64,000 nt of DNA from an uncultured Clostridia bacterium. GTDB taxonomy: Bacteria > Bacillota > Clostridia > Christensenellales > UBA1242. The translations under genes were made by a program, and so were the position numbers. The notes below the pieces were generated by a model. It did no database searches. It was given only the letters and a program-made list of their open reading frames with translations, and was not told the DNA's origin. The stretch is taken from contig CALWRJ010000023.1 of NCBI GenBank assembly GCA_944383915.1, forward strand, positions 74,274 to 138,273, written 5' to 3'. Of this stretch, positions 25,370 to 64,000 are shown piece by piece (position 1 is the first letter of the stretch; every line of letters begins with the position of its first letter).

Positions 25370-28300
25370 CTAATTCCTTCCTGCAAATGCTACACGTGCT
25401 GAACCATTATCAAAGCGATCGTAATCACCGCCCCACACTTCATCCGTAGAACCTCTTAAATTATATCTAAGAGAAAACGATGCAGAACCTCCAGAACTTA
25501 ATGAGCGTGTAGAATCATTAGAACCAAAAGATGCCGTTTTAGATGGTCCATCTCCAAGTATTGAATGAGTATCTGTACATCTTATAGATCCCCCACTAAT
25601 TCTTACGTCAAATGAAAAACTACCAGGAAGTTCTGAACATGATACAGTAATTGATACACTTATATCATAATATGATTGATAATTTATCCAGTTTGTTGTA
25701 GATTCATATATAACGCCACCTGTTACTTTTGCGGATACATAGTTCATTACATTATCCGATCCCGTATAGACTTTTTGACCTGCTTTAAAGGCTTTTATCC
25801 CACTTCCTGGCGAGATATTTACAGTATCACTCCAACTGCTTTGACCACCAAACGCTGGTCCAAAGCCTGGCTTACAATATACTGTTACAGTCATTCTAAG
25901 CGTATTGACATCTTGACTAAATGTTAGATTCGTGCCAGATTGTGAACCAGTAGACCCCGAACTACTAAAGTTTGATGGAATTTCTTGCTCAACTCCTTCC
26001 GTAGCCTGTGCTCCACTAAATCCATAAGTCCATTCAGCATCTATAGAAGCACCGCCCATATTTGAATAACTTGTTTTTACTCCTGTAATGGTTTGCCAAC
26101 TTGCTTGAGTAGTTGCTTCTTGCACTATTTTTGAATTATCTGGAGCACTAGGATCCCATACCCAATCACCATATGCAGCAATACCATCTCCACCCTTATC
26201 TACAATCGTAGGTGTACCGATATTTGCACTCGGGTGGTATGGAATTTCAAAGAATATATCTGTTGAGTATGAATAATATACAGGGAGCAAATTATGCGCT
26301 TCATCATAACCATCGTGTACAGGGATAACTGTAAAGTAGTTTGTACCACCCTGGATATTACCTATATAGTTTGTATAACCACTATACAAGCATCTACTTA
26401 CCGTTGCCGCGTCATATGATTGGCTCGCAAAAGCATCAGCACTGCCCGAACTAAAAGTCCACGAAGCCGTGTAGGTATAAGTGCTAGTAGCCTTATTTAC
26501 AGTAACTGTTGCGCTAGTTTCTTTTGCTTGACCTGCTAGGTTGTACTGGTCTAGTGTAACTTGCAAAGTGCCAAGTTGGTTGTTAGCAGAGAAATTTGCT
26601 TCCATATAGATAGTACTTCCACTTACGCTAAAATCAATTCGGCTAGTATCAAATGGCAACTCTCGATAATAGTTTAAAATTAAGCCATTTGAGAAATCAC
26701 TTTCAAGCACATAGTCATTTGAATAATCAGTCGTTACCCTATCAAATTTAACGTAGATTATAAAGCCGTCTGACGCTCGAATTTCGGGGTTATCAACTAG
26801 ATAATCGTTTATAAAGTTGTTTAGCATATTGTAGTACTCACTAGCCGATGTTGACGGACTAATTGTGTACCATTCATCAATACTAATTGTCCGTTGTGAA
26901 TACGGATAATAATATCTAAATGTTACCCTGTTTGGAGCCATATTGTATGGTTGCCCAGTTTTATCTTGAGTAGTTGAGTAATTTTTCCATAGAGCTTCGC
27001 CTTGGTAACCATTTTGCAAAATACTAGATGTAAGCGCTGCAACAGTACCGCGAGAAGTATTTGCTAGTGGTTCCATATCGATTGTTAACGATTCAATGTC
27101 CATTTTTAATTTTAATGTAACGGTGTAATATAAGTCTTTACTATTGTATCCCCTACCTACATAAGTCATTGAGTCATCAACAGCAGCGATAATATTAATT
27201 AACCATCTATCGTTTTGATTTGCTGGCAACTCCCATTGATTGTAGTAACTACTATCAGTATAAGGGTCACCAACATCAATTTTTAAAATATCCGTTAGAT
27301 TTTTAATGTTAGAGGTATTAGTATTATTCGGCGAAAGAGTACAAGCGCTACGCACAATTCCGTTGTCAATACTATATGTTTCGTGGTCTGGTCTTGTTAG
27401 GTAAACATAGTAATTTACATTACGACTAATAGTCCTATATTGTAGCGGAATGTAGTTTTGGTAGTAGTAGTAGTAACCTTGCTCACGATAGAATGATGAA
27501 ATTTCATCATTATACTGCTCGGTACTAAATGTGCAGTTATTTTGGTTGAAGTCTGTTTGCACGGTTTCAAGTCTTGAATAGAAGTAGAATGAGTAAGTAC
27601 CGCTATTTGATTCGCTCGCCCAATCACTTGACACCCAGTTTAATGCTGAACTACCACTTGGTGCTACGGTGCGGATATCAATAGTAATTAGTCCGCCGTG
27701 GTAAAGTCCACTTGAAAGTGGAGTGTCCTCGTTAATAAGGTTGAATATTCTCTCATATAGACAAGATACTGAATACAAATAAATGTCGCGGTAATTTGTG
27801 TAGTCGTACCTTGCAGTGTCTGTGTCTTTTCCACTTGATAATGCGCTAGCCAACTCCTCGGCGAACCGTCCAGACATAATGTTGTCATTGTACCCTTGTA
27901 GCAATGTGTAATCGGTATACATAGTTGCGTTTACATCACGAGTATTTAAGGTGAATGTTTCCGTCTTATCTCCATAAGTAAGCCTTATCTCGTAAACGGT
28001 GTTTGCGTTAGTTGCAAGCATACCATATTCAAATTCTTGTCCGCCGAGTCCCTCTAAATCTTTTCGGCTCGTGTACATATACGGGTTTGTTGCAAGCCCT
28101 GAGTATTCATATCCGCTAATATTTCCGTAGTTTGGCGCAAGGTTTGTGTCGTAAGTTGTTCCGTTTACTTCAATACTACTCATATTATAGTACTGTTCGA
28201 GGTCACTATTCATAGTATCAAACATCAAGTGCACTGAAGGTGCGGTGTATTGTTTTTGAATAGATAAATAGTCAAGACTTTCGGAGCGTTTAGACGAAAC

Positions 28301-31300
28301 ATAAGTTCTGTTAATTGTAGCACGCGTTGCGTTAACTTCTCCTGTAGAATTATTTATAGTATAGAAGGAGTTGAGTTCGTTATAGCCAGGTCCACCACCT
28401 GTTTCAAGTTGGACTGTATCCGCTGTAACTGCGGTAAATCTAAACGAAACAATATTTGGTAGATAAGTGTCAAGCATTTGGAACATCGAACTTTCTGCGC
28501 CATAACTATGCACTTCGATGTACGCGCGTTGACTAGCCTCGTCATAGTGAATTTCAAACTTAACAGTCGAGTTGTTATACCAGGTGAAAGTATTGTTTGC
28601 AGTTCCCGTTCCGCTCGAACCACCATCGCTATTTGAATAAGTCGTGTACCCGATATCGAGTAATACGCTCTTATCACTAACAATTAGCGGGTCGGTCGAA
28701 TACAAATCATTTAACCAAATGCGGTAGTAGTAACCAAGATTTGAGTCAGCAATCAAGTATCCGTCAGTCGCACCAAGGCTAGAGTAACCTTCATAGTCGT
28801 TTGAGCCCTCTTCGTTTAGTATTTCAATGTCAACAGGTCCAGGCTCTGTTAGATACGGCATAGCATACTCTATCTTGTGTTGGAAAGTAAAGTATAGTGA
28901 CGGCATTAGTGAATTTAAATCGAGATATTCCAAGATAAAAGATTGATTTGCCTCAACAATACCATTTACAACATCCTCATTAATAGTACCGTCAGCGTTC
29001 ACAGCAAAAGGCACATGCTCGCGCACCCATCTATCGCCTAGTATTATGTCGTCTTGATAAGTTCCGTCAGTAACGGGCGCATTTTGGTTTACCGTATTGT
29101 TATTTACCCAAGTCTTAATCTTACCATAGTAAGTAATCGGTACCCAAACTTTATCTAGGTCTACCCCTTGCACAGTTGTGTTGCGCAAAAGTTCACTTAG
29201 AGTTAATTCGTTTAGGATAATTTCTCTATCTCTAATCGTTCCAACAACGCGGGAGTAGTCCCAAGTGCCAGAGCCGATTTGTCTATCTTTGTAGTCATAC
29301 AAGATATAGAGATTTTGAGTGCTTCCTTGCGAACTTGCGTTGTCCCTAGTACCTATTATCCAGTGTGCAAGATAAGTACCGTCTTGCTCTTGTAAATCAG
29401 TCCAGTTTGGAGTCGTACCAGCGCGTTCGTCTTGCGTATTGTAAATATAGATTTCAAACGCATTGTTGTAGTTGTCTGGTTGAATACTCTCTAGAGTATA
29501 GTAAGCATTGTTTTCAATGTCGGTATTCTCCAAAGGATAATTGCTTTCGCTTGTAATATGAATCATATTGTCGATATTATATGAAGTATGTTTACCAGAC
29601 ATTGCAATGTATGTGTACTCTACCCCAAGAGAAGTATCACTATTTAAGTAGTAAATCGCGTTTAGGTTTTTCTCCTCGTAATTCGGGTTGTCGTAGTCAG
29701 GTTTTGTCGTTGTTAAGTACATATAAACTTTATAAGTAGCGTTTGGTTCCCAATTCCAAGTAGCAATTGTATCGCTTTGGACAAAGCAAGTCCTACCATT
29801 GATTTCAGAAAGGCTTGAGAAGTTTTCTACATACAAGTTTTGTCTATCGATTGACGAATTTCCGTTAGGATTAAAGTATACGCTCTGCATATCGGAGGTA
29901 TAGAAGGCTTCTTGTTCCTCTGGACTTAGACTATTATACAAGATTTCGTCCGCGAACTGCCCGTTTGCGTCTTGTTTAAAGGCAATAAAGGTTGCATTGT
30001 AGACGCATCCGTCATTAACCTCGTATGTGTATCTGTCTGGAGTAAGCGTCCAGCTTATTACGAATTGGTCATTATTTGTGCCAGTGTAAGAAAGTCTGTA
30101 ATCAAGAATTGGAGTAGGAAGCACAACATAGTGGCAAACATCAGTATTAAGCATATACGGGTCGCCCGTTGGACTACTGTCACCGACTTCGTCACCGTTT
30201 AGTATCCAGAAAATGTGATATACGCCCGCGTACGAGTTGGTATCAAACAAATCGTGGATATCCATTATAATTTGCGCACGGCTTGTATCAATCGCGCTAC
30301 CACTCGAGTAGCAACGCAAAATCGTTACATCGGGGTTTTCTGGGTCGGAATAAATTCCGTCAGTGCCAAGAAGGCTATAATCAGGAATATTAAGTGTAAC
30401 TGAATAAGTGTGGTCAATGTCATAGTTTAAGCCATTGTAAAGCCTTGCGATAACTGTAATCGTTTCTGGCAATTTTGGTCTGTCAACTCCATCAACGGAC
30501 TGTGTAATTGTGTTTACATAGATTGAGAGCAATGCTTGTTTGTGCTCGTCAAAACTCCACAATCTCTCGTTACCGTTTACTGGGTTTGGCGCTGCGTCTT
30601 GTGCTTTTGTGGTAAGGTGTTCACCAGAGATTGATGCGTCTTGCGTACTGCTACGCCAAACTTCCCTAACCAACTTTTCACGCGTTACCGTGTAGCCGGT
30701 GTAGTAAGTGCTCGTAGTCGTAAAACTTACTTTTAAGTAGTAGTACCCACCAGCGAGCGAGTCACCACCCGATACCCAGTCACTTGCAGTGATGTATCCG
30801 CGTTCTGCCAAACTATTTAGCGCATTAACTAGGTTAAAGTTGTACTCTGTCATTCCGCGGTAGTAATTTATGTAGTTGTGGTGATTTTCACTTGCAGGTT
30901 GGTCCCAAATAACTTCACCGATGTATGAGCCGTTATTTTTTACTTCGTCATAGTCGGCTCCAGGTGTTGGCTCGGGGTCGCCTACATGCCAATTAAGTTT
31001 TAATAGGCTAACTGTTATATAAATTGAGCCACCGTTGCTTGTAATGTCATCGTAAATTGCCTGGTTTATGTCGTTTTCAAGTGTTACATCAAATTCGCGT
31101 TGGTCGTCCCAACTTACATAAATATTAGGTAATTCGCTCGAACTTGGCAAGTTATTTGTAAGCACTTTTACCCTTTCGCCGTCCAAGTAGTACGATTTAA
31201 TGCTTTCATCGCTCAAGTTTTTCGTTGGGCTGTTTGTGTAGATGTAAACTGCATTTCTGTTACTACCACCAGCAATTAGCATACTGCTAATGTCATACGA

Positions 31301-34300
31301 AGTAGCGCCTTCGACAACAACGCTTTGCTCTACATAATCATTAGGGTCGCTATTCCAAGTGCGCACAACGATTGTAAACGAATTTGTGTTTACTGTAACA
31401 GGAAGCCCTAACTCGTTTTCACCGTAAATTGTGTCTGTATATTCCCAAGTTAAAATTCCGTCACTTGATAAATTAGTGTTTGTCGGTTGCTCTGGGAATG
31501 GCACATTTTGATAAGTATACGGCATCATACCAGTATCAGTTATGTTTACTGCGTCTGTTCCATAACTATTCGGGTTAAAGATGCGCTCCTTAAAGGCAAC
31601 ACCATCTCTATCGTAAACCGTTGCCGAAATCATATATTCGTATGTTCCAGCAAGGTAGTATGTACCATTTCTAGCGTTTTCGTCAATACGGTCGCGGTCG
31701 TTAAAGTACTCTGTCATATCGAAAATTAAGCGGTTTCCAACAAGGTCAAGAGTAAAGCCTTCGCTAGTTCTTTCATTATCTAATGAATAGGTGTAAACGA
31801 CTTCGTTATCTACAATCGACACCTCGATATTTAAGTATGCCGAGTATGGTATTTTGTGGCGAACAGTTTGGTTTTTATTACCAAATGCTTGCGGAAGGTC
31901 GCTCATCGTTACGGTATACAACACATCAATACTATACGGGTGCGTTGGAAGTGTCCAGTATAGGCTTCCGTTTTGCGCGAGTGTGTCGTTTTCAACCGCG
32001 TTTAGAGCGGTAACTTCGGTAACAAGACTATTTAGAGTCGAGTCCCCATTGCGAGCAGGAGCGAAGTCCATAAGTTGCGTTTTAAACTCAAAGGAGCGTG
32101 GAGTCGTAACTACATGGCTATTCAACTCGAACTCACCTTCGGCTAGCGCTTGCACGCTAAAGCGGAACATATGCGGTCCAAGAGTCTTGATATAGTCGTA
32201 AACATCAAGCCCGAGTGGCACGCCGTTATCAAAGTCATCGTCCGTCATATCGATGTCAAAGTAGTTGCCCGTTGTATAAGCGTCACCGTTGTAGTGGTCG
32301 TAGTAAAGTGGAGTTACACGGTAAGTAATACCGCTAACTGCGTTGCTAAACACGATATTTACTCTGTTTACATTTTGGCGAGTTGATGTGTCCGAATAGC
32401 CGATACTTAATGAAGTTTCGTTTAAGCTCGGCGCATCGTTACGCATATAAATGTATTTATCAAAGTCACTTTGTAATACTGTGCCAGCGTCACTTAAAGC
32501 AACTTCCCTACCACTGCTATCAATGTAGAAGTAGTAGTTTTCGTTACCCCAAGGAACGAGCCTAATCGTATTAAGCCCAGCAACTGCCACCACGCTATTT
32601 TGTTGTTGCGAAAGGTTGAGTTTGTTTACCGAGTTCGCAATTGCTTCATAAGTAAGCGCGGTTGCAACATTTTGGATATCACCGACATAGTAAAATTCAC
32701 CAGGGTTAAGCGAATTTGAAAGGTAGACTTTAAAGTATTGTGCATAAGATGCCGAATCATCAGTTATGATTAGATATTTGTCATTAAAACTCAAATTCTG
32801 CTCATAAATTTCGAGGTCCTCATCGGCGCTCGTAACTTCGTGATTTGATACGCTATTAATAAAGGCATCAGGTGCGATTGCAAAAATTTCACTTGTTACT
32901 GCTGTAAGTGCGAATTTATTTACATATTCGTGGCTAACGGGGTCGGAATCGGTGTAGATTCCACTTCCCTTTACCACAACGCTTAACACACCCGCCCCCG
33001 CAATTATACTACGGGTAATGTCCGCGCTCGAACCATCGATATAGTTAAAGTTATAAGTTTGAGTTACCGAGTTATAGGTAAACTTTTCGTTGTCCGCGCC
33101 TTGATTTTGTACGATGTAGTGTACTTCACTATTAGCATCAGTTATATACACATCAAAAAGCGCGTTTGCGGTATAGTTCCAAGTAACGCTTGTTTGGTAA
33201 GTGCCACTTGTAAGCGGAATCGTAGTAACAATTAAGTTTGTAATCGAACTTGCAGGTGTCATACGCGTAAATTGAGCACTTACGCTTCCCGCATTGTCGG
33301 ATACATAAACTTTATTATCGACATCTTCCGCAACTCTTACAACGACATAGTATACCCCAGCATCAAGCCCAGTAGTTAGACTTGAAAGGTCAAGGCTTGT
33401 GTTTGTAGTAACAGTCGTTCTACCGTCTAATACACTACCATTTTCCGTGCTAGAAATGTAGACTTCGTACTGTGTGGCGTACATTACAGGATTCCAAGAT
33501 GCCACATTATCTACAATTACAAGATTTGTCGGCGCATCAGCAATTAAAACTGGTAAAAGGGTTTCGCCCGTGCTTGTTTGCGAGTTGTATGCTAAATAAT
33601 TTTCAGTGTTGTAATTATAGTAAGTTGGTGTTGCAGAAATCGTGTAAGTAACCGTTCTGCCAGTTAATAGCAAGTTTGAAATCAACGAATTTGTGCCTAA
33701 AATGTCGACACTTACGCGATTATCAACGGTTTGAAGGCTCGATAAATCTACAATATAGCCATTAATATTTAGTCCGTATTCAGCACCATTAAACACATCA
33801 CCATTTCTTAAAGTATTTGTCCACGAAAGTGTGTAGGTATTGCTTGCTTTATCAAAAGTAATATCAAAATCGTTAACGCTATTTAAATTTCTAGTGTTTA
33901 CAAAAATACTTAATACCGTTTGACTTGCCGAACCGTCAGGACGGCTTGCTTGCAAACTAAAATGAATTGCGTAAACTGCGTCCGCTGGTAACGTAAATGT
34001 TACTTGACGGTTAGTAGTATTTAAGTTTAGAGAAGTCGGCGCACCGTCAACAAAGGCTGTGCCTTCTAAATGTTGTACAGTGTTATTAGCATCGATAATT
34101 TGAACTGAATAGTTGTAACTTAAATCGTTAAACTGCTCTTCCCCGTTCCAAAGGATAGTAATATTTGTGCCATCTGCAATCATTCGAATATCACTAGGAG
34201 CCGAAATCTCACCAATTACAAAGCGGTATTGCGTTTCACTAGTTGGCGCAAAGTTAAATTCCGTAAGTCCACCGTCAATGTTTGGCTCACAACTAATAGG

Positions 34301-50468: not shown

Positions 50469-50482
50469 GCAACTTATTAAAT

Positions 50483-50910: not shown

Positions 50911-50911
50911 T

Positions 50912-51676: not shown

Positions 51677-51727
51677 TACTTTCCCCTTTTTTATAATATT
51701 TTATACAATAAATCAGCAAAACAAATA

Positions 51728-52763: not shown

Positions 52764-52805
52764 AACAAAAAAACAAGCAGTTGGTGGTTTTAAAACTGCT
52801 TGTTT
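52764..52805 (-). terminator. intrinsic terminator ~180 nt after the GLUG giant ORF
   Basis: AAACAAGCAGTT ... AACTGCTTGTTT 12-bp stem at 52771-52805, then a T-rich run on the minus strand. Confidence 0.7.
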
Positions 52806-52986
52806 TTAATTTACTCTTTAAAAAGCATAAAAACAATTTTGCCTATCGTATATTTTTATGTGATTTTTGCTTTTAAAATTATTTTATAGGCTGTTTTTTA
52901 GTAAGATTGTAGCGTATTTAACACATAATGGCTAGCGAAAAGACATCTCGTGGTTTTACTACATAATTTTCTAAACTGAATAAAAT

Positions 52987-55900
52987 CTATGGAGTTTCAG
53001 TGTCACCACCTTCAGTTTCACCGCCTTCAACTTCGCCCTCTCCTTCCTCATCAATATTTACGCCATTAACGATAATTGTACCATTGTTAGTAATCGCATA
53101 ATTTGCTAGAGTTAGGCTTTCGTCTGTCACGATATTAAGTGTGCCGTTGTTTATATCTACGAGTGCGGTTAAATTGCTTGCAGTAACATTTGCAATAGTT
53201 ACATTAACGGTTGCGTCAGCGTAAATGTTAGATGCGATTCCATACACAACTACGCTAGGTGCAGTAAATATTTCTACGCTGTCTAATACTGTATTAATCG
53301 TGCGTGCAGAGTCAAAGTTTTGTACAAATAGCGAAGTATCAGTATCTACATAAACGAAACTATTTGTAATTGATAATGTGCTCAAATCGTCAAATTTCTG
53401 TCCTGTTGGACCAAATACGCTTCCGTTTAGTACCCAAACACCAGCATTTGATATAGTTGTGATGTGGTTGTTTGTTGACGAACTTGTAAAGTCGCCAGTC
53501 GAGGTATTTCGAACAATTAGACCGTTTGAAACAGTAGTAAAGTTTAGGGTAAAGTTGTTTAGCGTTTCAAGTGCCATATTATTTAAGTCCAGCGTTCCGC
53601 TATTAATTGTAACAGAGTAAGTGCCACCATTTGTATTTGCGTATTCGACAAGTCTAGACAACTCGTCAACGGTATTTATGATATACTCATCGCTTATCAT
53701 TGATACCGAAACGCCGAATTTCGCATTTTCGCCGACTGTGTCTACAAATTCGCGAAGTTCAAACACGCGTGCACCGTCTACCATTCTACCGGTGTGAACC
53801 CAGATGTCGCCATCAAGATTAACCATATTATTTGGAAGTGCGGTAAAGCAGTTTGTAGCAGTGCTTCCAAATGTTGCGCCGTTTGAAAGGCTGTTGGAAA
53901 TATTTCCTTCGCTAACGACAGCACCGCTTGCGCTGTTTGTGTAGATAATACTTGCCGAACCGCTCACATTGTCCGCTAAAATTACGCTTGCAGTCGCATC
54001 ATTTAATGCAAGGTTACTTACTTCACCAGATAAAGTACCTATCAAAGTTTCCGAGATATTGCCAATCGAATATCCTCTACCATTAAGGTGTCCAGCGAAG
54101 TTTGATTTTGTAAAGTTTCGAGTAAGCAAGTTAAAGTCGATGTCATTTTCTAGCATATAGTACGAAGTACGACCGTTTGAAAGTGCCCAGTTTAATAATC
54201 CAGCAGAATTTATCAAGTATGGCGAACTAATACTACCGCTTCCTGTGTCTTTTAGTACTGTATTACTTTCTAGCCACCTTAAATATGGAAGTCCATAGTT
54301 TACTGAATCATTCGAAATAAACGCTGTGCCAAGACTCAAAACTCCGCTTTCGCGTTCACTTGCAACACTAAATGGCGTAAAGTAAGTGTTTTGCGTTGTC
54401 GTCATTGTATTGTCGTAGTAAACTCCGTCAACATTAGTTGCCCCACCATTACGGTTTGCGACCACGCTATCAAGAATTGCCGAGCCATTATCTATCAACG
54501 ATACCGCAGTGTAGCAGTTTTCGTTGTAGAAGCCTAGGCTTGCGCCACTTTCATTTGTAACTCTACCTACAAAACCCGAAATATAAGTATTTTGTGCTCT
54601 GCTATAATTCGTAATCGTGCCTGTCGCAAAAGAATCGATAAAAGTTAGACGCGTGTCAGTATTGCTTGACCAACCAACTAGTGCGCCGAGATTTACGCTA
54701 CCGCCTGTGTCTAAAATGTTTCCGTCTAAATCAACGCCACCGTACCAATTAATATCAAGCCCGCTACCGCTACCGATAATTTGCCCTTTATTAATTCCCG
54801 CAATCGCGCCGACATTTGCCGTGCCACTTTCAAGCCCGAGTGTAAGACTTCCTGAAACGTAGACTGCGAACACTTTCGCATTCTCGTCTATCTCGCCAGC
54901 AAGTCCGCCAAAGTTTACGCCATCGCCAATTTTTGTCGATACATTTAACCTAATAACCGCCCCCGAGAAAATCGAACCTCTGCCGTTTACTTCGGCCAGT
55001 GTATCAAAAATGCCGTAATTTTTGTTAGTCGTTGCAGTAAAGTTGTCGTATTCGAGAGTGTCTAGACTTATAGCAGTTAAAGAATTTCCGCCAGCGTTGT
55101 ACCAACCGTATAATGTGCGGTTAAGTTCTAGGCTAACTCCTGTAATGTTAGCAACTTGCAAGTAGTATAGATAATTTCGCCCTGTCGTGTCAAGAAGTGT
55201 TGCAAAGTTGCTATAATTACTAATAATAATTGGAGTGCGCTTTGTGTCACCGTTTACGGTATCATAGTTATAAAGTGTAGTGTAACGCGTATTTGCATCT
55301 GTAAAGTTTGACCAAGAATTTGTATTTAGTCGCGCGTATGCGTAAGTGCTACCTTGTGGACGAGTAAGAGTTGATGCTGAATAGTTTATAACGCTCGCAC
55401 TCGTTGCGCCTACATTGTTTGTATCGCGAGCGGTAAGCCCTAGATTTGTATCACAAACGACACTTGCATACCCGAGTCCGCCACTAAATACGCTCAAATC
55501 AATATTTTCAAAGCGCGTGTTGTTGAAAATTGAAGCAATAGAGTAACCAACTTGGAATGCTCCGCCAGCATTAGAGCCAGCAATTCCGCCGAGCGCGTGC
55601 GATGTCGTACTCAAACTTGTATCGTACTCACCGTTTAAGGTTATGTCACCACTGCTAATAAATGTCGTAACTTGTCCACCACTAATATTTCCTACAACAC
55701 CGCCGACAAATAGCCTATTTGAACCGATGTTGACAAGATTTAGCGTTAGATTACTTGCACTATCGATTTGGTCGAGCATATTTTCATTACTTAGTCCAAC
55801 GAAACCGCCCGCATAAGTGCTAGATTGAATATTATTTAGAGTTATATCCATATGGCTTACAGCACTAGTTATATTAACACTCGTTGCACTTCCAACAAAG

Positions 55901-58900
55901 CCACCGACATAGTGCGTAATATTTAGTCCAGTAACATCATAAGTTGCCGAAATACTTCCTTCTGCCATAATGTTTGTAAATGTCGTATTTTCGCCAGTTG
56001 CTTGACCAATCGCACCACCTACATTTGCCGAAGTTTCGCGCGCGGTGTAAGAATTATCTTGCGCATCTATATCGATAATTACATAACAATCAGTTGCGCT
56101 TGCTGTGTTATCTCCGTCTGAATAGAAGCGTCCAAATAGTCCACCAACATTGTTTGCAGTCGTACTAATACCGTGGTACGCGCCTACAACTGTACTATCG
56201 TTTGTAATGTTTACGCTAGATACTGTCGTGTTGCGCGCTACCCCTATTAGTCCGCCGACATACGCGGTTAGATTGTCGCTTAAATTTGTCGAAATATAGA
56301 GGTTTACAATTTTTACATTTCTAATTGTAGCACCGTCAGTCGCGCCAAAAATACCAGCATTCATTGCCCCAGTTTGTACTATTGGAACATTTTTTAATGT
56401 GTGTCCGTTTCCGTTGAAACTACCCGTAAACGGCGCACTTTCAGAGCCTACTGGCACAACAGCAACTTGTTCTGCTAAAAAGTCGATATCTTGCATCAAA
56501 ATGTAGTTTTTGTCAGGGTGCCAGTACATAATGTTGTAGTCGTCAACAGTGTTTATATTTATAGTATCTGGCACATCTTGGATATCAATTGATGGCATAC
56601 CATTTTCATTTGAGATGCTAAAACTATCCCAACCGTCAAAAATCTCATCAAAGTTGTTTAGCATATATCCGCGAGTGTACCCTGTTGCACAATTAATATC
56701 TGCCTCGTCATTACCAACTGCGCGCAAGTTTATCACATTCTCGCCCGTCTGCTCATCTACAACAGTATTTAGTACTACGCGGTTGTAAATTTGATTTACA
56801 TAGAAGTTTATACTATTGATTAAATTGCCATAAGGTTCATCAGGGTCACCCGTACTTGTCGTGTGAGTTGTATATATTAGGCTAGGGTCTACACAGTAAC
56901 CAACCAACCCACCTTGCGCTCCAATGCGCGCCTGCGTGTCCGTTTGACTTAATTCGTAATAGTAATTGTAATCACTTGCAAGGTAGTTGTTTAGCGCAAC
57001 GCAGTAATCAAGCGTTGTTTGCGCTGATACATTTGTATCAAACGGATTGTCGATACTTGTTAGGTTTCCACCGTTGCTGAAATCGTCAATGTAGCCGACA
57101 ATTCCACCTAGGTTTGCAGTCCTGCTTCCAAGCAATCCACCTGTCGCAAATACCGCTCTAATATCTCCACCATAGGCAACACCGACAATTCCGCCGACAT
57201 TTGCACCATTAGAATTGCGCACGCGCACTTTGCTACTACTATAATATATTGCACCGCTTGACCAACCGTTGCTTGTGTAACCAATATTGATACCTACCAA
57301 GCCACCTGTACCGATTGTGCTTTGTCCGTTATCAAAGAGTGTGTTGTTTACTGTGATATTGTCTCCGTCAAGGTCAACAGTCGTATCTTCACCAGTGTTT
57401 GCGCTGTCAACAGCGTTTTGCACATCGTCAGTGTATACAACATTACTATATCTAATTACACCGTTATTCTGTCCAACAAGTCCGCCAGCGAATTGATAAC
57501 CGCGAATACTTGACATAGTGTCAACCGTTTTTTCAGCATAGTTTAGTACCGTGTGCACACCTAATGCACCTACAATACCACCAGCAATTTTTCCAACAAT
57601 ACTCGTTTGTCCTGTCGAATAAATGTATTGAAGCATTGCTTCGTTTATATTTGTAGTCGTGTTTACGCTATCAAATTGAGTAAGGTCTGCAATTCCAAAT
57701 ACTCCGCCAGCCATTCCAAGTACGCCAATGTTATTGTACGCGTTGTCACTTCCGCTCGCGCGTCTTAAATCGTAATTGTAGAGTGCTTCGGTATTTGCGC
57801 GGTAGTTTGCAGTAACACCGATGTTAGCCGTAATATTGCTTGCTCGCGATGTTCCTGTAATAAGTCCAACCGCGCCACCAACTGCATTATATCCAATAAC
57901 TCGGCTGTTTTGTCCAGAGATATTGATGTTATAAATATTTCCGCCGTCAACGATACCAGCGAGTGCGCCGACATAGTCAACTTGCGAACACGATACCGCG
58001 GTAACCGAAATATTTAAGTTTTTAACAGTACCAGTATGTAAAATTCCGTCTGTTGTAGTCTCACTTCGAATTAGCCCGAATAGTCCATATCTTGAAACGC
58101 TCTCGTCGTTTACTGCGAGATTGAGATTTTCAAAAGTGAAGGAGTTGCCTTCAAAAATTCCTGCGTACTCAATTGTCGGGCTATTTAAACTCGTAGTAGC
58201 CGAAATTTCGCTTTGGTCAATGTCGCGAGCAAGTCGAATGTCGTCAACGATTACAATATCTGTCGTACTAAACGCGTTATTAAACTGCGTTGCGTTCGTT
58301 ATAGTCACAGGGTCGTATGAATAATCAGTACCAAAGGCTGTATTTGTAGTTTTAGTAAAGTACGGAACAAATTGTTGCGTGTATACATATTGTATAACTC
58401 CCGTGTCAGGGTCAACGCTTGTATTTGCTTCGTCAAGATTTAATCTCGGAGTCGCAATCAAACTTGCGCTTACTAATTTTGGTCCTAAATTCATTTGATT
58501 GCGCTCATTTAAGTATGTCGTAAAGCGGTCAGGAGTAAAGTAATCATTATCTACATCAACTAGTGTCCAAACTCCCGTAAACTCGCTTCCTTCACGCGAG
58601 AAAGTAAAGCCTTCAAAGACGGTGCTTCCGCTATTTCCTAACATTTGGTCTAAAGTTAATTCAGTGGCGTCCTCAAGCCTTAACGCGTTAGAACTAAAAC
58701 CAGTGTTAAGGAAGTAACAATTAACAATTCCGTTAGGGTTAAGGTTGTTGTTTTCAGTCGCTTGCGTGCTATCTACCCCAATAAATGGCATACTAAGGCT
58801 AGTTACCCCCGAATCGCTAGCATCCGTCAAGATTGAAACAGAGTAACAACGAGTAATTGTCGCAGAATTTGAGTTTGAGAAGGCAAAACCGCTCGCCTCA

Positions 58901-61900
58901 ATCGCCCAAATTTGCGCTGCCGAATAACTATCACTAATTGAGCCATAGTTGTTGTACACAAAGCCCGCAGTCCTAACACCTGATAGTATAAGCGCATCGC
59001 GAGTACCACTCAACGAATCTACGCTTGTATTTTCGCCTGTTTCATCATTGTATTCAGTGTATGCACCACCGACAAATGAGCCGAAAATTGTCGCGCCGTT
59101 GTTATTTTCTACTACAAGTCCCGCAGTCGCAACATTTGTACCTGTCGAACTTGCAGTATTTGTAATCGTTCCGCCTGTATAATACGATGAAGCAATCGTT
59201 CCAGAATTTGCAGAAACTAACCCAGACACACGCCCAAAACCTGTAATATTTGTGTAAAGCACTCGGCTGTTTGATATCGCACCGCTTGCGTTATTAGTAC
59301 CGACAAGCCCACCGATATAGAAGTTTGCCGAAGTGTCGCTCGGTTGTGGAATTGTAATTCCGCGTGGAGAATTATTCATCCAACCATTTACTACACAGTT
59401 ATAAATCGTTCCTTCATTTACACCAGCAATCGCACCAAAGTTTAAGGAAGTGCTACTAGAAATACTACTAGGAAGTGTAAGTCCATTTGAATTTAGCGCA
59501 ATGGTAACATTTTTAATTACCATATTCTCGGTAACTGTATCGAATAGTCCGTAGTTAGACGAGTTAGAATTAATGCTATTTGGCAAGTAAATTGTATATC
59601 CGTTACCGTTTAGGCTTGCAATTTCGGTAGTTAACGCAGTCCAGTTTGAAGTGATATAGATATCATTTAGCAAAATGTAGTCAATTCCAGACTCCATATT
59701 CATAAGGTCGCGCTCGGTATAAATCGGTTGAGCGTGCTCTTGGCTCGTCATTTGGTAAAATTCGAGTGTCAACTCGCCTGTCGAATATCCGCGTGACGAG
59801 TTTTCAACATTTTCACCATAAATTAGGGTAAAGTGTCCGTTTTCGTAGTCAAAGTAAAGGTCATATCTAATTCGTGACGAACTTGAAACTCCCGCCCCCT
59901 CGACTTGATAGCCTAAATATCCACTGTCGCCATAATCGTTATAGAATTTGTAATTTGAGTCAAGCCAAGTCGTATATTCATCTGTCATAGGTTCAAGAAT
60001 TGTCCAGTAATAATTTCCGTCTTGGTCAGGCACAAAGCCCCACCATCCAAAATATCTTTGCTCGCCAATACCATTTAACCTATTAATTAAGTCCATAACT
60101 TGTTGACGAACTGTACTGTCATTAGGGTTAAATGTTATTGCGGTAATTGTGTCAAGATTTTCAAGAGTTGCGCCTTCAAAGATGCGCAAATCATATTTTG
60201 CATCGCGAATATACGGATAGCGTAAAGTTGTATTTTGCGAATTTCCGTTTACTAGCCCATCACTTATGCTTGAAATGTAAAAGTCAACAACCAAAAAGTC
60301 AAGAGTGCGAGTAATGGTATTTATTAGCCCAGACATATTTTGTCTACCTGTTAGAGTAACTGTAATAGTCGAACCAACAGGCGCAGTCCCAGTGTATAGG
60401 TAATACCTACCATTTTCGCTAGTTATTAAAACATTGTAAGTGTCCGTTAAGTCAGTGCCATCACTATCAAAAATTGATGCCGAAATCGAATAATCGATAA
60501 ACGAACTTCCTACTACGACATTAATTTCATTTCTATTCTGCTCAAGCGTGTTGCTTCCTATTGTATACCCTGTCCCCGCAGCAACATATGCGGTATTAAT
60601 ATTAGAATTGTAATTATCGTAACTTAAAGACAAAGTATCTTGCGCAACAACTGTCATAGTAAGGTCTTGCGTATAGGTGTTTTCACCTTGATAAATTCTA
60701 ACTGTTACAGTAAATTGCGAGCCAACGGTAGCAACCGCCGAAATTAGAGTGCGGACATAATAGTTTCCGTCAAAAGAACCATCAATGTTACTTACTCTAT
60801 ATAGAGTTACACCGCCATCGATATTTTCAACTCCCGTTTGCCAACTATAATAAGTCGCGATGTCGTTTTCGTAACGCAAAATGCGTTGGTCAAACATAAT
60901 TTCCTCGGGGTTCGTGCTTGCGTTTACAACTTCGACTCTGTCATAATTAGCAAAATCAGGAGATATGCGAATGTTAAGAAGTCCGTACTGCCCTGCAATT
61001 AGAGTATTTGTCGGTAACTGCCCTGCTTGTTGTAGCCTTGAACCACTATTTACCGCGTCACTATAATGTGCCATATCAATGTGATTAATTTTTTGTGGTA
61101 TGAAAGTAAAGTATAGAGGAGCTGTCATCGTGTAGTTAAAGTCACCATTTGTGTCGGTTACACCTATCGGGTCGCCATTCTCATCAAGTGCCCAGAAGGT
61201 AATTGTATAACTTTGCGCAGTGTTTAGGTCATTTCTAGCCATATTGCTTAAACTTACACTAAACGGAATAATTAGCGTTTGGTTTGTCAAACTGTACTCA
61301 ACCGCACCAAATTGAATGTACATATCATTAGTTTCAATACCGTCTTCGGTATTAATTAAGTCACTATCCGCACCTTCAAGGCGCACCGAATACCCTATGT
61401 GGTCAAGCACGCTGTCGCCGTCTTTATAGTTATCCGTAAACACGGTTACGCTACTAACGAGCGAGTCCCCAGCATAAACTTGCGTGCTATCCGCAATACC
61501 AATTGCTATTCCAGTCGCGCCCTTATATATAACGGTGTCATAAACAAGCGAAGTGTGTGGGTCGAAAATGTCGATTCGGTATTCAGCACTTGATACTGCC
61601 GACAAGTTTTCGTCAAGTGTATAGAAAGTTGCCCTTAAAAATGGAGTTACGGTTACTTCAATACTTGGAGAATACGAGTTTGCTACAAATGTGATGCTTG
61701 AATATTCTGCATCAAGGTAGTAATAATAGTCCAAATCACCCTGTGTCCACTCATCAAAGCCGAGAGAAATTATATCAGGGTCTTGCACGCTAAAGCGAAG
61801 TCCACCGTCTACCGCACTTGCGCTAACTGCTTCGTTATTGTCGATATACTCGACAAATGCTTGCGTATTTCCGCCATTTTTAATACGAATTGTATTGTTA

Positions 61901-64000
61901 GCGCCAGTACCATTTTCAATTAAGTTTCCGCTAGTTGTGTCTGTGCCCGCGTACAAGTTAAAGGACTCAAAACCATCAATAACAGCAATTTGCACCGCAT
62001 CGCGCGCAACATTATTTTGACTGCTTACAAATCTAATTATTACCGTACCGGTACCAACTATTCTAAAACTTGTCGTGTCAAAAGTTAGCCCAGCATTCAA
62101 TTGAAGTACGTTTGTATTAGATAGTGTAATTTGCATACGCACATCGCCTGCATCTAATTCTGGGTCGCTTGCAAAATCAAACAAGTTAGATAGCATTATG
62201 TCTTGCGCGGTGTCGTCATAGAAAAGTATCAATTTTTCGCCGTCAAGTACATCATCGTTGTAAACATTTTGTATGCCATTTATAACATCACTTCGAACGC
62301 TTTCAAATGTTTTAGCGGTAATCGAAATCGAGTTTGGCACAATTCGAACGAAAGGTTCACCATCTTTTAATAAATATGGATAACCATCGTTTATGTTTGC
62401 CGAAATATCCCAGTTATTTGCGTTAAAGCCATTTTGGATATAGTAATTTAGGCTCGTAGCATTTGCGCTATTCTTGTCAAGGTAAATTAGGTTTGTTGTA
62501 CTTGTAAATAGGCTTGCATCATTTACTAAAATTATAGTTCTGCTTTGGTTTGTGCTTATGCTTCCCGTTCCAACAATGCTTAAATCATTTTCTTGACTAA
62601 ATTCAGTGTAAACGCTAAATGTCGAGGTTTGATTTCCGCTAGTACCAACGACAGCACCAAGATTTGCGTTTGTTCCGCTTACAATTCCGCGCGCGTACGC
62701 ATTAAATATCGAAGTTACTCCGGTCGTACTACCTACAAGCCCACCAATAGACATATTCCCCGCGCTTGAAAGAGAGCCAACAAGTCCAATATTTGCAAAA
62801 CTGCTTTGAATTGAAGCATTGCTACTAGTATTTATCGCACCAACTAGTCCACCAATGTTTGTGTTGTCTATGTCGCTAGTAATGTTTGGATTTTCAGCAT
62901 CAATATAGTATCCTTGCGCGATAGCGTACTCAATACTACCACCAGTCATTAGACCAACAATACCACCAAGTGAGCCACCACCACTAATACCGCAGTTATT
63001 ACTACTAAGGCTATAAACCTCATATGCGATATTACTTAAAGTACCACTATTTGAGCCAACAATTCCACCAACATTTCCCCTAGCCCTTAAAATGCCCGAA
63101 CTCATAGAATTTTGTAAATAGCCAGCATTAATTCCTACAACACCACCAAGAGAAGTGTTTTCATTAGTGCCTGTATCAATGTTTCCGTCAGCGTTGACTC
63201 CGTAAATATTTGCGCCTTCCATATTTTGCCCAACTGCGACACCTACTACCCCAGAACGCAACACTCCAGAAACTTGCGAACTTGAATCTGTTACCGTAAC
63301 GCTTGCGTACGCGGTATTTGTGTAATATTGAGTTGCGCTCGTTCCAATACTTCCTTCATTTGAACCAGCAATTGCACCAAAACTTACTTTCAAGTCGTTG
63401 CTTGTAATTCTTGCCGAGATGTTTACATTCATATTGTCAACGATACAATTTGCGCTCACCTTTCCTATCGCACCTAGGTTAAATGTCAAATAGTCGTGAA
63501 GCGTTGGAAGTGTGTTTGGGTTTTGGTATATAACATTTGAGCAAGATACTGTTACATGGTCAATAACCGCTCCGCGAGTCGAATCCCCTATTGTTGTTGA
63601 GTTTAATTCACCAACAAGAAATCCGTAGTTATATTCACCATTAATAATAGGAGTATTCATATCCTCTCGGCAAGTTGTTTGGTAAACAGTATAACTATTA
63701 ATATAGAAGTTTACATACCGAATTTCACCAGTCACTACACCAAATATTCCATAAAACATTGAGTGCGAACTATCATTTTGTGGTGATGATTGCGTCAAAT
63801 CTTTCCTTAATGTCCACCCAACAATACTTTGCGCCGTGCCTGTTCCGTCCTCACATCCCATCGAAATAATACTTCCGCTAAATGGCGCTATACGCGTTCC
63901 AATCGGCGTCCAATCAGGGTTGCGAATAAGGTAACTACTCATATCGATTGTATTCATAAGGTAATACTTGCTACTAAGACCAATTGCTGTATTGCCTATA
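52987..64000 (-). CDS. giant GLUG-repeat surface protein, at least 3671 codons, 5' end beyond the window
   Basis: The frame stays open from the ATG at 63957 up to position 64000 (IGNTAIGLSSKYYL-MNTID), and no RBS precedes that ATG. Many GGLVG/GGIVG/GGVVG units are present. Module openers of the type FTGSFNGNGHTLKNV, LNGNGYTIYL and LNGRGYSIGNI are typical of GLUG-motif adhesin-like proteins. The tail is acidic (EEGEGEVEGGETEGGDTETP). Confidence 0.85.
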   Translation of the reverse strand, partial: IGNTAIGLSSKYYLMNTIDMSSYLIRNPDWTPIGTRIAPFSGSIISMGCEDGTGTAQSIVGWTLRKDLTQSSPQNDSSHSMFYGIFGVVTGEIRYVNFYINSYTVYQTTCREDMNTPIINGEYNYGFLVGELNSTTIGDSTRGAVIDHVTVSCSNVIYQNPNTLPTLHDYLTFNLGAIGKVSANCIVDNMNVNISARITSNDLKVSFGAIAGSNEGSIGTSATQYYTNTAYASVTVTDSSSQVSGVLRSGVVGVAVGQNMEGANIYGVNADGNIDTGTNENTSLGGVVGINAGYLQNSMSSGILRARGNVGGIVGSNSGTLSNIAYEVYSLSSNNCGISGGGSLGGIVGLMTGGSIEYAIAQGYYIDAENPNITSDIDNTNIGGLVGAINTSSNASIQSSFANIGLVGSLSSAGNMSIGGLVGSTTGVTSIFNAYARGIVSGTNANLGAVVGTSGNQTSTFSVYTEFSQENDLSIVGTGSISTNQSRTIILVNDASLFTSTTNLIYLDKNSANATSLNYYIQNGFNANNWDISANINDGYPYLLKDGEPFVRIVPNSISITAKTFESVRSDVINGIQNVYNDDVLDGEKLILFYDDTAQDIMLSNLFDFASDPELDAGDVRMQITLSNTNVLQLNAGLTFDTTSFRIVGTGTVIIRFVSSQNNVARDAVQIAVIDGFESFNLYAGTDTTSGNLIENGTGANNTIRIKNGGNTQAFVEYIDNNEAVSASAVDGGLRFSVQDPDIISLGFDEWTQGDLDYYYYLDAEYSSITFVANSYSPSIEVTVTPFLRATFYTLDENLSAVSSAEYRIDIFDPHTSLVYDTVIYKGATGIAIGIADSTQVYAGDSLVSSVTVFTDNYKDGDSVLDHIGYSVRLEGADSDLINTEDGIETNDMYIQFGAVEYSLTNQTLIIPFSVSLSNMARNDLNTAQSYTITFWALDENGDPIGVTDTNGDFNYTMTAPLYFTFIPQKINHIDMAHYSDAVNSGSRLQQAGQLPTNTLIAGQYGLLNIRISPDFANYDRVEVVNASTNPEEIMFDQRILRYENDIATYYSWQTGVENIDGGVTLYRVSNIDGSFDGNYYVRTLISAVATVGSQFTVTVRIYQGENTYTQDLTMTVVAQDTLSLSYDNYNSNINTAYVAAGTGYTIGSNTLEQNRNEINVVVGSSFIDYSISASIFDSDGTDLTDTYNVLITSENGRYYLYTGTAPVGSTITVTLTGRQNMSGLINTITRTLDFLVVDFYISSISDGLVNGNSQNTTLRYPYIRDAKYDLRIFEGATLENLDTITAITFNPNDSTVRQQVMDLINRLNGIGEQRYFGWWGFVPDQDGNYYWTILEPMTDEYTTWLDSNYKFYNDYGDSGYLGYQVEGAGVSSSSRIRYDLYFDYENGHFTLIYGENVENSSRGYSTGELTLEFYQMTSQEHAQPIYTERDLMNMESGIDYILLNDIYITSNWTALTTEIASLNGNGYTIYLPNSINSNSSNYGLFDTVTENMVIKNVTIALNSNGLTLPSSISSSTSLNFGAIAGVNEGTIYNCVVNGWMNNSPRGITIPQPSDTSANFYIGGLVGTNNASGAISNSRVLYTNITGFGRVSGLVSANSGTIASSYYTGGTITNTASSTGTNVATAGLVVENNNGATIFGSFVGGAYTEYNDETGENTSVDSLSGTRDALILSGVRTAGFVYNNYGSISDSYSAAQIWAIEASGFAFSNSNSATITRCYSVSILTDASDSGVTSLSMPFIGVDSTQATENNNLNPNGIVNCYFLNTGFSSNALRLEDATELTLDQMLGNSGSTVFEGFTFSREGSEFTGVWTLVDVDNDYFTPDRFTTYLNERNQMNLGPKLVSASLIATPRLNLDEANTSVDPDTGVIQYVYTQQFVPYFTKTTNTAFGTDYSYDPVTITNATQFNNAFSTTDIVIVDDIRLARDIDQSEISATTSLNSPTIEYAGIFEGNSFTFENLNLAVNDESVSRYGLFGLIRSETTTDGILHTGTVKNLNISVTAVSCSQVDYVGALAGIVDGGNIYNINISGQNSRVIGYNAVGGAVGLITGTSRASNITANIGVTANYRANTEALYNYDLRRASGSDNAYNNIGVLGMAGGVFGIADLTQFDSVNTTTNINEAMLQYIYSTGQTSIVGKIAGGIVGALGVHTVLNYAEKTVDTMSSIRGYQFAGGLVGQNNGVIRYSNVVYTDDVQNAVDSANTGEDTTVDLDGDNITVNNTLFDNGQSTIGTGGLVGINIGYTSNGWSSGAIYYSSSKVRVRNSNGANVGGIVGVAYGGDIRAVFATGGLLGSRTANLGGIVGYIDDFSNGGNLTSIDNPFDTNVSAQTTLDYCVALNNYLASDYNYYYELSQTDTQARIGAQGGLVGYCVDPSLIYTTHTTSTGDPDEPYGNLINSINFYVNQIYNRVVLNTVVDEQTGENVINLRAVGNDEADINCATGYTRGYMLNNFDEIFDGWDSFSISNENGMPSIDIQDVPDTININTVDDYNIMYWHPDKNYILMQDIDFLAEQVAVVPVGSESAPFTGSFNGNGHTLKNVPIVQTGAMNAGIFGATDGATIRNVKIVNLYISTNLSDNLTAYVGGLIGVARNTTVSSVNITNDSTVVGAYHGISTTANNVGGLFGRFYSDGDNTASATDCYVIIDIDAQDNSYTARETSANVGGAIGQATGENTTFTNIMAEGSISATYDVTGLNITHYVGGFVGSATSVNITSAVSHMDITLNNIQSSTYAGGFVGLSNENMLDQIDSASNLTLNLVNIGSNRLFVGGVVGNISGGQVTTFISSGDITLNGEYDTSLSTTSHALGGIAGSNAGGAFQVGYSIASIFNNTRFENIDLSVFSGGLGYASVVCDTNLGLTARDTNNVGATSASVINYSASTLTRPQGSTYAYARLNTNSWSNFTDANTRYTTLYNYDTVNGDTKRTPIIISNYSNFATLLDTTGRNYLYYLQVANITGVSLELNRTLYGWYNAGGNSLTAISLDTLEYDNFTATTNKNYGIFDTLAEVNGRGSIFSGAVIRLNVSTKIGDGVNFGGLAGEIDENAKVFAVYVSGSLTLGLESGTANVGAIAGINKGQIIGSGSGLDINWYGGVDLDGNILDTGGSVNLGALVGWSSNTDTRLTFIDSFATGTITNYSRAQNTYISGFVGRVTNESGASLGFYNENCYTAVSLIDNGSAILDSVVANRNGGATNVDGVYYDNTMTTTQNTYFTPFSVASERESGVLSLGTAFISNDSVNYGLPYLRWLESNTVLKDTGSGSISSPYLINSAGLLNWALSNGRTSYYMLENDIDFNLLTRNFTKSNFAGHLNGRGYSIGNISETLIGTLSGEVSNLALNDATASVILADNVSGSASIIYTNSASGAVVSEGNISNSLSNGATFGSTATNCFTALPNNMVNLDGDIWVHTGRMVDGARVFELREFVDTVGENAKFGVSVSMISDEYIINTVDELSRLVEYANTNGGTYSVTINSGTLDLNNMALETLNNFTLNFTTVSNGLIVRNTSTGDFTSSSTNNHITTISNAGVWVLNGSVFGPTGQKFDDLSTLSITNSFVYVDTDTSLFVQNFDSARTINTVLDSVEIFTAPSVVVYGIASNIYADATVNVTIANVTASNLTALVDINNGTLNIVTDESLTLANYAITNNGTIIVNGVNIDEEGEGEVEGGETEGGDTETP

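Follow-up and report, generated by a model that had tools for sequence, protein, structure and literature searches.

Clustered genes for giant extracellular proteins have been described in Apilactobacillus kunkeei, whose Giant1-5 are 3,000-8,000 amino acids (aa) in length and carry beta-solenoid domains that are thought to bind ligands (PMC12863079). In the pneumococcal IgA1 protease it is an N-terminal beta-helix that binds the substrate, the Fab of IgA1 (PDB 6XJA/6XJB; PMC7695701). The system considered here lies in a 64-kb stretch of contig CALWRJ010000023.1 (the window) from an uncultured Clostridia bacterium of the Christensenellales, in which three giant open reading frames, ORF1, ORF2 and ORF3, together take up ~32 kb, all on the minus strand. 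They are real, conserved and very large surface-protein genes, whose families are new and unannotated, although the kind, that of giant adhesin-like modular surface proteins, is already familiar. The reading preferred here, at a probability of roughly 0.55, is that they encode three extracellular proteins tethered to the membrane by their N-termini, which form long modular surface fibrils used for contact or adhesion.

Three giant genes on one strand

ORF1 (25370-38779) is 13,410 nucleotides (nt) long and encodes 4,469 aa with an N-terminal transmembrane anchor, and it belongs to a small family that has no Pfam match. ORF2 (39252-46811; 7,560 nt) encodes a predicted lipoprotein of 2,519 aa. 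ORF3 (52987-64000) has no upstream stop and is open to the end of the window, with at least 3,670 aa, the C-terminal part of the protein, visible. A first-pass annotation of this stretch, made without database searches, had placed three giant minus-strand ORFs over half of it, and the coordinates, lengths and strand it gave are exact. What it saw between them also holds, with the repeat block it called R8, between ORF1 and ORF2, consisting of AATTAGC heptamer arrays in a 472-bp spacer, and the 6-kb islet before ORF3 containing degV, glyQS and two unknown genes. The skewed composition that it reported, rich in N/S/T/Y/G and poor in cysteine and basic residues, is apparent in all three products, which have 0.9-1.7% Lys, 0.4% Cys, 28-31% N+S+T and an isoelectric point (pI) of ~4.1, whereas the cytoplasmic neighbours have 5.4-9.7% Lys.

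Such genes could in principle be an artefact, either of the mis-assembly of repeats or of decaying genes that happen to remain open, as the source is a metagenome assembly, the composition resembles low complexity and ORF3 is cut by the window edge. This explanation is effectively refuted. Self-BLAST of the ORFs found no near-identical internal repeats of the type prone to assembly collapse, and two independent metagenome assemblies (ERZ24773235 and ERZ28614008) match window positions 35217-49173 at 99.97-100%, with contigs that run through the whole of ORF2 and the spacer and include only the start of ORF1. Orthologues of ORF1, ORF2 and ORF3 (27-67% identity) in many genomes are full-length, colinear and without frameshifts, and the invariant residues number in the hundreds per family for the ORF1 and ORF2 families. 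Because collapsible repeats are lacking, two other assemblies match and the orthologues are colinear and frameshift-free, the ORFs are taken as real and not as products of chance or assembly.

The N-terminal signals appear to be the sole means of attachment. No LPXTG-like motif, C-terminal hydrophobic segment or further transmembrane segment was found in the three ORFs, and no SLH or choline-binding (CW_binding) repeats were detected with Pfam, even at an expectation value (E) of <=5 on pieces of the proteins. The motif search and Pfam thus agree with the first-pass annotation, which had seen no LPXTG, SLH or choline-binding anchor. When pieces of ORF1 and ORF3 were compared with Pfam at E<=5 only sub-threshold fn3 and Glug were returned. 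Judged from these signals, ORF1 would be tethered by a transmembrane helix and ORF2 by a lipid, following lipidation at its lipobox.

The choice of search method is of importance for proteins such as these. A word-indexed protein search missed all of the ORF1 orthologues and nearly all of the ORF3 relatives, which were recovered by exhaustive search and by genome scans; negatives from word-indexed searching are unreliable for giant proteins of this low-complexity-like type.

ORF2 and ORF1, two FN3-rich proteins encoded side by side

ORF2 begins with a lipoprotein signal peptide (residues 1-23, 46743-46811; coordinates of features within the three ORFs are all on the minus strand) that ends in the lipobox FVA-C (...LCFVA-C23), and Cys23 of this lipobox is invariant in 6 orthologues. 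It is followed by a Big_2 domain (PF02368; residues 58-117, 46461-46640), matched at E 7e-12 and 45.6 bits against a cut-off of 22.8, which is also matched in 6/6 ORF2 orthologues and in Big_2 structures of the PDB; a PDB search with the ORF2 family profile matched the Big_2 domain only. Both the lipoprotein signal and Big_2 had been read correctly in the first pass. Next comes a region of fibronectin type III (FN3) modules (residues 139-1735, 41607-46397), in which a module hidden Markov model (HMM) finds 14 modules and none in reversed controls, and then a GLUG-type region (residues ~2017-2393, 39633-40763) with the opener LTGGFDGRNHTISN at residue 2076 and four 28-aa units at 2249-2393. Five orthologues are 41-46% identical to ORF2 over 100% of its length.

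ORF1 has a signal anchor at residues 1-33 (38681-38779), its sole strongly hydrophobic segment, which is present in all members of the family and is the N-terminal anchor that the first-pass annotation had proposed. This is followed by an FN3 region (residues 45-2543, 31151-38647) with 15 modules, between which are gaps that could house ~9 more. The module HMM started from the first seven modules, taken across the ORF1 family, and was iterated with reversed-sequence controls; it converged on these 15 modules of ~100 aa with 0 in the reversed controls. An earlier HMM iteration from a single seed and hhalign of one module had both stalled, because the modules are too diverged. Pfam fn3 is seen in ORF1 only when the protein is scanned in pieces (residues 680-754, 21.3 bits against a cut-off of 25). 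At curated thresholds the whole of ORF1 gave no Pfam or NCBIfam match, and 0/10 ORF1-family members matched Pfam, fn3 included.

Although Pfam fn3 (PF00041) does not match whole ORF2 at its curated threshold, it does match 3/6 ORF2 orthologues, with a best E of 7.7e-10. When the PDB was searched with a profile built from the 29 modules of the window (ORF1 and ORF2), fibronectin was matched at E 1.6e-11, and the 60 matches shown were all of the FN3 type. It is on account of the fibronectin match and the fn3 matches of ORF2 orthologues that the FN3 label is correct at the level of sequence profiles. The 'dozens' of modules that had been suggested are a different matter, since only 15 and 14 are detectable in sequence, and any greater number rests on fold prediction of moderate confidence. 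The AlphaFold2 (AF2) model of ORF2 residues 1320-2519 is poor, with a mean predicted local distance difference test (pLDDT) score of 44.8, and its only usable Foldseek matches are FN3 arrays over the upstream modules.

The C-terminal half of ORF1 (residues 2544-4469, 25373-31150) is conserved and is without Pfam or PDB sequence match, as PDB sequences were matched neither by the ORF1 family profile nor by a profile of residues 2700-3899. Conservation is even along the protein and highest in the non-repetitive region 2800-3900. No part is better conserved than the C-terminal half, where conservation peaks at 2800-2900, 3100-3200 and 3700-3900; it extends to about residue 4300, and the last ~170 aa vary among family members. 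The C-terminal region had been described as 'unique', which does not hold up, as it is instead shared within a small family to about that residue. The AF2 model of residues 2700-3899, made from a 10-sequence alignment, has a mean pLDDT of 62.2, and Foldseek aligns it with tandem FN3 arrays (insulin receptor, contactins) at a probability of 0.97-0.99 and with low TM-scores. It is predicted from this model that the region consists of more diverged FN3-like beta-sandwich modules with helical inserts.

Taking the two models together, FN3 arrays are matched at a probability of 0.97-1.0, with low TM-scores and a pLDDT of 62 (ORF1) and 45 (ORF2). Of the checks that the first-pass annotation had put forward, the Pfam scan gave Big_2 in ORF2 and left both ORF1 and ORF3 without a match at curated thresholds, and structure prediction with Foldseek gave FN3 arrays, at pLDDT 44.8 and 62.2, without establishing a fold for GLUG.

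The ORF1 family is small and closely kept. When the 1,200 C-terminal residues of ORF1 were searched exhaustively with phmmer against 1.84 billion representatives, only 15 proteins were returned, all of them members or fragments of this same family, which amounts to some ten clusters at 50% identity. Full-length members have 4,179-4,568 aa and are 27-48% identical over ~4,300 residues, colinear and with a one-to-one order of modules down to 27%.

Such constancy raises the main rival to a fibril for contact or adhesion, namely that ORF1, with or without ORF2, is an envelope scaffold or a fixed-length spacer that supports an outer layer or sheath, or spaces cells. That length and module order are kept as identity falls from 48% to 27% speaks for such a scaffold, as do the even conservation with its peak in the non-repetitive 2800-3900 and the location within stable housekeeping synteny, and Foldseek also finds scaffolds made of MG domains, which are FN3-like, in complement C3, alpha-2-macroglobulin and CD109. 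However, no SLH, S-layer or wall-binding domains are found, the family is very rare (the 15 matches above), it evolves much faster than the housekeeping genes and its copy number varies across lineages, and on this evidence a scaffold or spacer is thought unlikely, if deserving of serious attention.

The ORF2 orthologue is directly upstream of the ORF1 orthologue and on the same strand in 8/8 loci: the window and seven others (L083, L088 and L173-L177), which come from GCA_964315415.1, BRZ_AQ bin90, BRZ_PQ bin18, O1_L3 bin.41, G02608-L1, a Hadza gut metagenome-assembled genome (MAG) and ERZ27279214. Because this order is found in all eight loci, ORF2 and ORF1 probably form an operon and are co-transcribed. 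The sites around the pair are of the kind that might be expected of an operon. The best promoter-like site upstream of ORF2 (47142-47171, minus strand; TTGACT-18-TATAAT, an 11/12 consensus match only) is 330 nt upstream of the gene, which has the ribosome-binding site GAGAGG 6 nt ahead of its ATG. The spacer between the two genes (38780-39251, 472 bp) contains no terminator-like site, and a terminator-like palindromic GC-rich hairpin with T-runs on both strands (25064-25091) lies 280 nt downstream of the ORF1 stop. In relatives the spacer ranges from 20 to ~460 bp. A more distant subclade has two ORF1 paralogues in tandem and no ORF2 partner, and the partnership is therefore not obligatory. 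An example is a Logan contig of SRR33036528 (L090, 6229-29590), in which paralogues of 4,453 and 4,236 aa are separated by two small unknown genes; there is no ORF2-like lipoprotein there, and an Amidase_3/PG_binding gene is found upstream, as it is in L083.

If the two proteins do act together, it is possible, though put forward only tentatively, that ORF2 and ORF1 form a previously undescribed, lineage-specific heteromeric fibre of fixed length (~100-150 nm), built of the lipoprotein and its transmembrane-anchored partner of ~4,400 aa. The ~40 individually conserved modules of the partner, and its C-terminal half without Pfam match, would then have a specific structural or cell-cell contact role rather than that of a generic adhesin of variable length. 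Such a fibre might keep an outer layer, or the cells of a partner, at a set distance in Christensenellales-like gut bacteria.

Some features of the DNA around this pair are worth recording in their own right. A 17-mer, AGTGATGTGTATGATA, is present as a direct repeat, with two copies 15 nt apart (46987-47035, minus strand), downstream of the promoter-like site and ahead of the start of ORF2, and it could be an operator or an element of the 5' untranslated region. The spacer between ORF2 and ORF1 has inverted AATTAGC heptamer arrays at 38972-39004 and 39160-39192, and 7-bp AATTNNN tandem arrays (AATTAGC, AATTAGG, AATTTTG, AATTCAA) of ~4.6 copies, often as inverted pairs, are found in nearly every intergenic spacer. 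Examples are at 3974-4076, 12903-12989, 17285-17347, 18892-19187 and 20859-21037, with further ones at 24786-25042, 38972-39192, 47253-47408, 48619-48992 and 50483-50889. These arrays look like a lineage-specific expansion of intergenic repeats, since the spacers are enlarged by them (472 bp between ORF2 and ORF1 here vs 20 bp in two relatives) and they are absent at the syntenic locus of the closest relative (L093). A 67-bp piece of the ORF2-ORF1 spacer (39050-39120 region) recurs at 17307-17373 with 97% identity, which indicates, as far as the sequence goes, a dispersed intergenic element tied to the heptamer arrays.

ORF3 and the GLUG units

The only close orthologue of ORF3 that was found is in the closest relative (L093), where it is a lipoprotein of 4,817 aa with the lipobox LAGC and is 67% identical over 3,646 residues. 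Residue 1 of ORF3 in the window corresponds approximately to residue 1,019 of this orthologue, and therefore ~1,020 N-terminal residues lie beyond the window edge, which would make the complete protein about 4,700 aa. ORF3 is itself probably a lipoprotein, and four distant homologues (P0121-P0124) also have lipoboxes; ORF3 has ~1,370 C-terminal residues more than these. The missing N-terminal residues and the probable lipoprotein status of ORF3, together with the strict pairing of ORF2 and ORF1, go beyond what had been noted in the first pass.

A unit HMM of 28 aa, with the consensus QGSANVGGIVGLINGGTISNSYSSGDIT, finds 20 GLUG units in ORF3, 4 in ORF2, 0 in ORF1 and 0 in reversed controls. Those of ORF3 are in five blocks. 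Block 1 has 4 units (residues 279-407, 62779-63165) and block 2 has 2 (1516-1586, 59242-59454), with the opener NGNGYTI at around residue 1465. Block 3 has 5 units (2093-2321, 57037-57723) and includes a sub-threshold Pfam Glug match at 2265-2287. Block 4 is the largest, with 8 units (2542-2825, 55525-56376), is preceded by the opener FTGSFNGNGHTLKN at 2524 and is the most like the C-terminus of ORF2. Block 5 has a single detected unit (3025-3053, 54841-54927). The blocks come to about a third of the visible protein, where it had been thought to be 'almost entirely' GLUG, and long stretches, including residues 500-1430, are without GLUG units or family match. The acidic tail that had been noted is present, as a Glu/Gly-rich C-terminus (52990-53055), and in the orthologue it is longer, acidic and made up of E/P.

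Whole-protein scans of ORF3 gave no Pfam or NCBIfam match at curated thresholds, and when it was scanned in pieces Pfam Glug (PF07581) reached 19.8 bits against a cut-off of 20.5, in 4 stretches. Glug did not match ORF2 or the closest ORF3 orthologue, and it matched 2/5 ORF3-family members, both distant, at E 2e-24. A PDB sequence search with the ORF3 family profile found no match. The best PDB match of the GLUG unit profile, a weak one at E 0.007, is the N-terminal beta-helix of the Streptococcus pneumoniae IgA1 protease, and because the match falls inside that beta-helix it is plausible that the GLUG blocks fold in the same way. A literature search on the GLUG motif yielded almost nothing.

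This match also raises the possibility that the proteins are surface enzymes, of the M26 IgA-protease-like or a glycan-degrading GLUG type, or else that they are protease traps that use a thioester in the manner of alpha-2-macroglobulin. The sample names point to the animal gut as source, where IgA is abundant, and the Foldseek list includes Escherichia coli alpha-2-macroglobulin, A2ML1 and CD109. Against this, the IgA1 protease match is confined to the non-catalytic beta-helix, and no segment or orthologue has a Pfam or NCBIfam match to a peptidase (Peptidase_M26 included), a glycoside hydrolase or a lyase. The CxEQ thioester motif is absent, the A2M family of Pfam is not matched, and the alpha-2-macroglobulin matches are at a probability of 0.13-0.30 with TM-scores <0.1. 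A role as enzyme or trap is thus regarded as quite improbable.

The C-terminal ~500 residues of ORF2 resemble ORF3 residues 2485-2815 at 25% identity. The first-pass annotation had suggested that the GLUG module of ORF2 and ORF3 came about by modular exchange, and whilst the units are indeed shared, recent exchange is unsupported, because identity in the shared region is only 25%, against 41-67% between each protein and its own orthologues.

ORF3 belongs to a more widespread family than ORF1. A genome scan with the opener motif found ORF3-like proteins in more than 50 species-level MAGs labelled Clostridia or Christensenella, where the word-indexed search had found only four. These ORFs range from 3,000 to >7,400 aa, are often in tandem with other giant ORFs and are 24-31% identical to ORF3 over 1,000-3,000 aa; most have a lipobox-like N-terminal motif, a candidate lipoprotein signal recognised by regular expression only. 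It would seem that giant GLUG proteins are characteristic of this uncultured clade. Amongst the relatives, a Hadza gut contig (L087, 1-20116) and the loci L096, L130, L114 and L128 have still larger GLUG-type ORFs, which comprise one of 5,630 aa adjoining one of 3,371 aa and single ORFs of 6,400 to >7,459 aa.

Chromosomal setting, role and known analogues

Between ORF2 and ORF3 is a housekeeping stretch of 6.2 kb (46812-52986), itself outside of the giant-protein system, with degV (47628-48467), glyQS (48998-50404) and two genes without Pfam or NCBIfam match (50912-51676 and 51728-52390), all on the minus strand. The two small genes beside ORF3 were set aside, as they look cytoplasmic and only one of them recurs, in the closest relative alone. 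The remaining genes of the window are ordinary chromosomal ones, among them those for CysRS, GlmM-like, TrxB-like, Dus, GlyRS, DegV and an M23 peptidase. In comparison with most Clostridia MAGs the identity of GlyRS does not exceed 62-64%, and the closest relative found is the MAG 'uncultured Clostridia bacterium BRZ_DV bin98', with a GlyRS that is 83% identical. The relatives in which the giant genes occur were recovered from gut samples of animals and humans and go under the labels uncultured Clostridia, Christensenella sp. or Christensenellales.

Gene order is well conserved. In the closest relative it is ORF3, a homologue of the 220-aa gene, glyQS, degV and ORF2, as in the window, and a relative with only 37% ORF1 identity keeps the window order of ORF2, ORF1, MFS, AspRS, ABC-F, CysRS, LDcluster4 and M23. 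The giant genes are therefore vertically inherited and chromosomal, and not the cargo of an island or phage. The thought that they could be cargo of a phage or mobile element, of the tail-fibre or decoration type, comes from Foldseek, which against viral models gives multi-FN3 tail and decoration proteins, and from PDB profile matches to Big_2, some of which are to phage Hoc-like and decoration proteins. Such similarity is that of generic FN3 and Big_2 folds. The giant genes have housekeeping neighbours whose order is conserved, the window ORFs that were scanned include neither an integrase nor any phage gene, and the giant proteins bear membrane-anchor signals, all of which makes such an origin very improbable.

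Elsewhere in the window there is a gene for a BspA-type leucine-rich repeat (LRR) protein of 912 aa (9695-12433, minus strand), with LRR_5 at E 4e-153 and Flg_new repeats, in which the DNA repeats have a 69-bp period. Its product has 1.4% Lys and a pI of ~4.1, like those of ORF1, ORF2 and ORF3, so that every predicted surface protein in the window is Lys-poor, compared with 5-10% Lys in the cytoplasmic proteins; its orthologues in other species are less depleted (up to 6.7%). A Lys-rich ORF of 493 aa (14665-16146, minus strand), without Pfam or NCBIfam match, is found between the LDcluster4 (SLOG) gene and that for the M23 peptidase. As the syntenic relative L088 has just a 154-aa ORF at this position, the 493-aa ORF may be an insertion beside a SLOG-family gene.

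Returning to the preferred reading, that of long surface fibrils, each giant protein would be held at the cytoplasmic membrane by its N-terminus and would reach outward as a modular fibril. In ORF2 the lipid anchor would be followed by Big_2, then by ~14-17 FN3 modules and lastly by a beta-helix region of the GLUG type, and in ORF1 the transmembrane helix would be followed by ~15 clear FN3 modules and then ~1,900 aa of divergent FN3-like beta-sandwiches, with the two, as a conserved and presumably co-transcribed pair, probably acting together, possibly as a complex. ORF3, which comes from a different family of wider distribution, would be a lipoprotein of ~4,700 aa with alternating blocks of GLUG beta-helix and unclassified segments rich in beta structure. 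The FN3 arrays would serve as stalks, and the distal non-repetitive parts, that is the C-terminal half of ORF1 and the GLUG beta-helices, would touch host material, glycans or other cells. An FN3 domain is ~3.5-4 nm in length, and at full extension ORF1 could reach a length of roughly 100-150 nm. In the closest relative the giant proteins are 56-67% identical compared to 81-83% for GlyRS and DegV, and this faster divergence, along with the acidic and Lys-poor composition, fits exposed surface proteins in a protease-rich gut.

Several points weigh against this reading. The searches turned up no domain for ligand binding or adhesion whose specificity is known, confidence in the AF2 models is low to moderate (mean pLDDT 44.8 and 62.2) and the link between GLUG and a beta-helix is weak (Pfam 19.8 vs 20.5 bits; PDB E 0.007). 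The fixed length and module order of ORF1 down to 27% identity is unusual for the stalk of an adhesin, which tends to be variable in its repeats, and would fit a structural role at least equally well, and the occurrence of ORF1 paralogues without ORF2 in one subclade means that pairing is not obligatory.

The guts of animals and humans commonly harbour uncultured Christensenellales-like Clostridia, and the giant proteins bear on how such cells touch their surroundings. That about half of a 64-kb stretch is given over to three surface proteins, with giants of >7,400 aa in relatives, implies that proteins of this type dominate the outer face of the cell. The ORF1 family, with ~4,400 aa, no Pfam coverage, a colinear layout and a lipoprotein partner, is a concrete target for structural work and for work on aggregation and host contact, and the FN3 module set and blocks of GLUG units provide domain definitions that can be used to annotate these families.

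The proteins of the window can be compared with several known systems. The M26 IgA1 protease has the same 28-aa G-G-(I/L)-(V/A)-G units as ORF2 and ORF3, a link that is weak (E 0.007), but the window proteins lack the M26 catalytic domain, the G5 domain and an LPXTG anchor, and ORF3 has five GLUG blocks in ~4,700 aa. The adhesins built of FN3 or Ig arrays (LPXTG stalks, Big_2 'YjdB'-type) are also long beta-sandwich arrays that are acidic, Cys-poor and located at the surface. These have a C-terminal sortase anchor, whereas the window proteins are anchored by an N-terminal helix or lipid, and so the distal end is the C-terminus. In contrast to such adhesins, the modules of the window proteins are old and individually conserved, without recent repeats or variation in copy number, and Pfam covers no part of the ORF1 family. 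The wider kin of ORF3 are the giant GLUG lipoproteins, found in this analysis, of uncultured Clostridia and Christensenella-labelled MAGs, to which it is 24-31% identical.

Giant1-5 of A. kunkeei have no detectable sequence relationship to the window proteins, and the topology is opposite, as the beta-solenoid of Giant1-4 is N-terminal, whereas here the N-terminus is the tether and GLUG is C-terminal (ORF2) or dispersed (ORF3). The window proteins also differ in that their stalks are FN3 arrays and in that the three genes are split by housekeeping genes. What the two systems have in common is that neighbouring chromosomal genes of a member of the Bacillota encode elongated modular proteins that evolve fast and are restricted to one lineage (PMC12863079), and Giant1-5 are the closest described analogue, in kind only, of the three giant proteins of the window.

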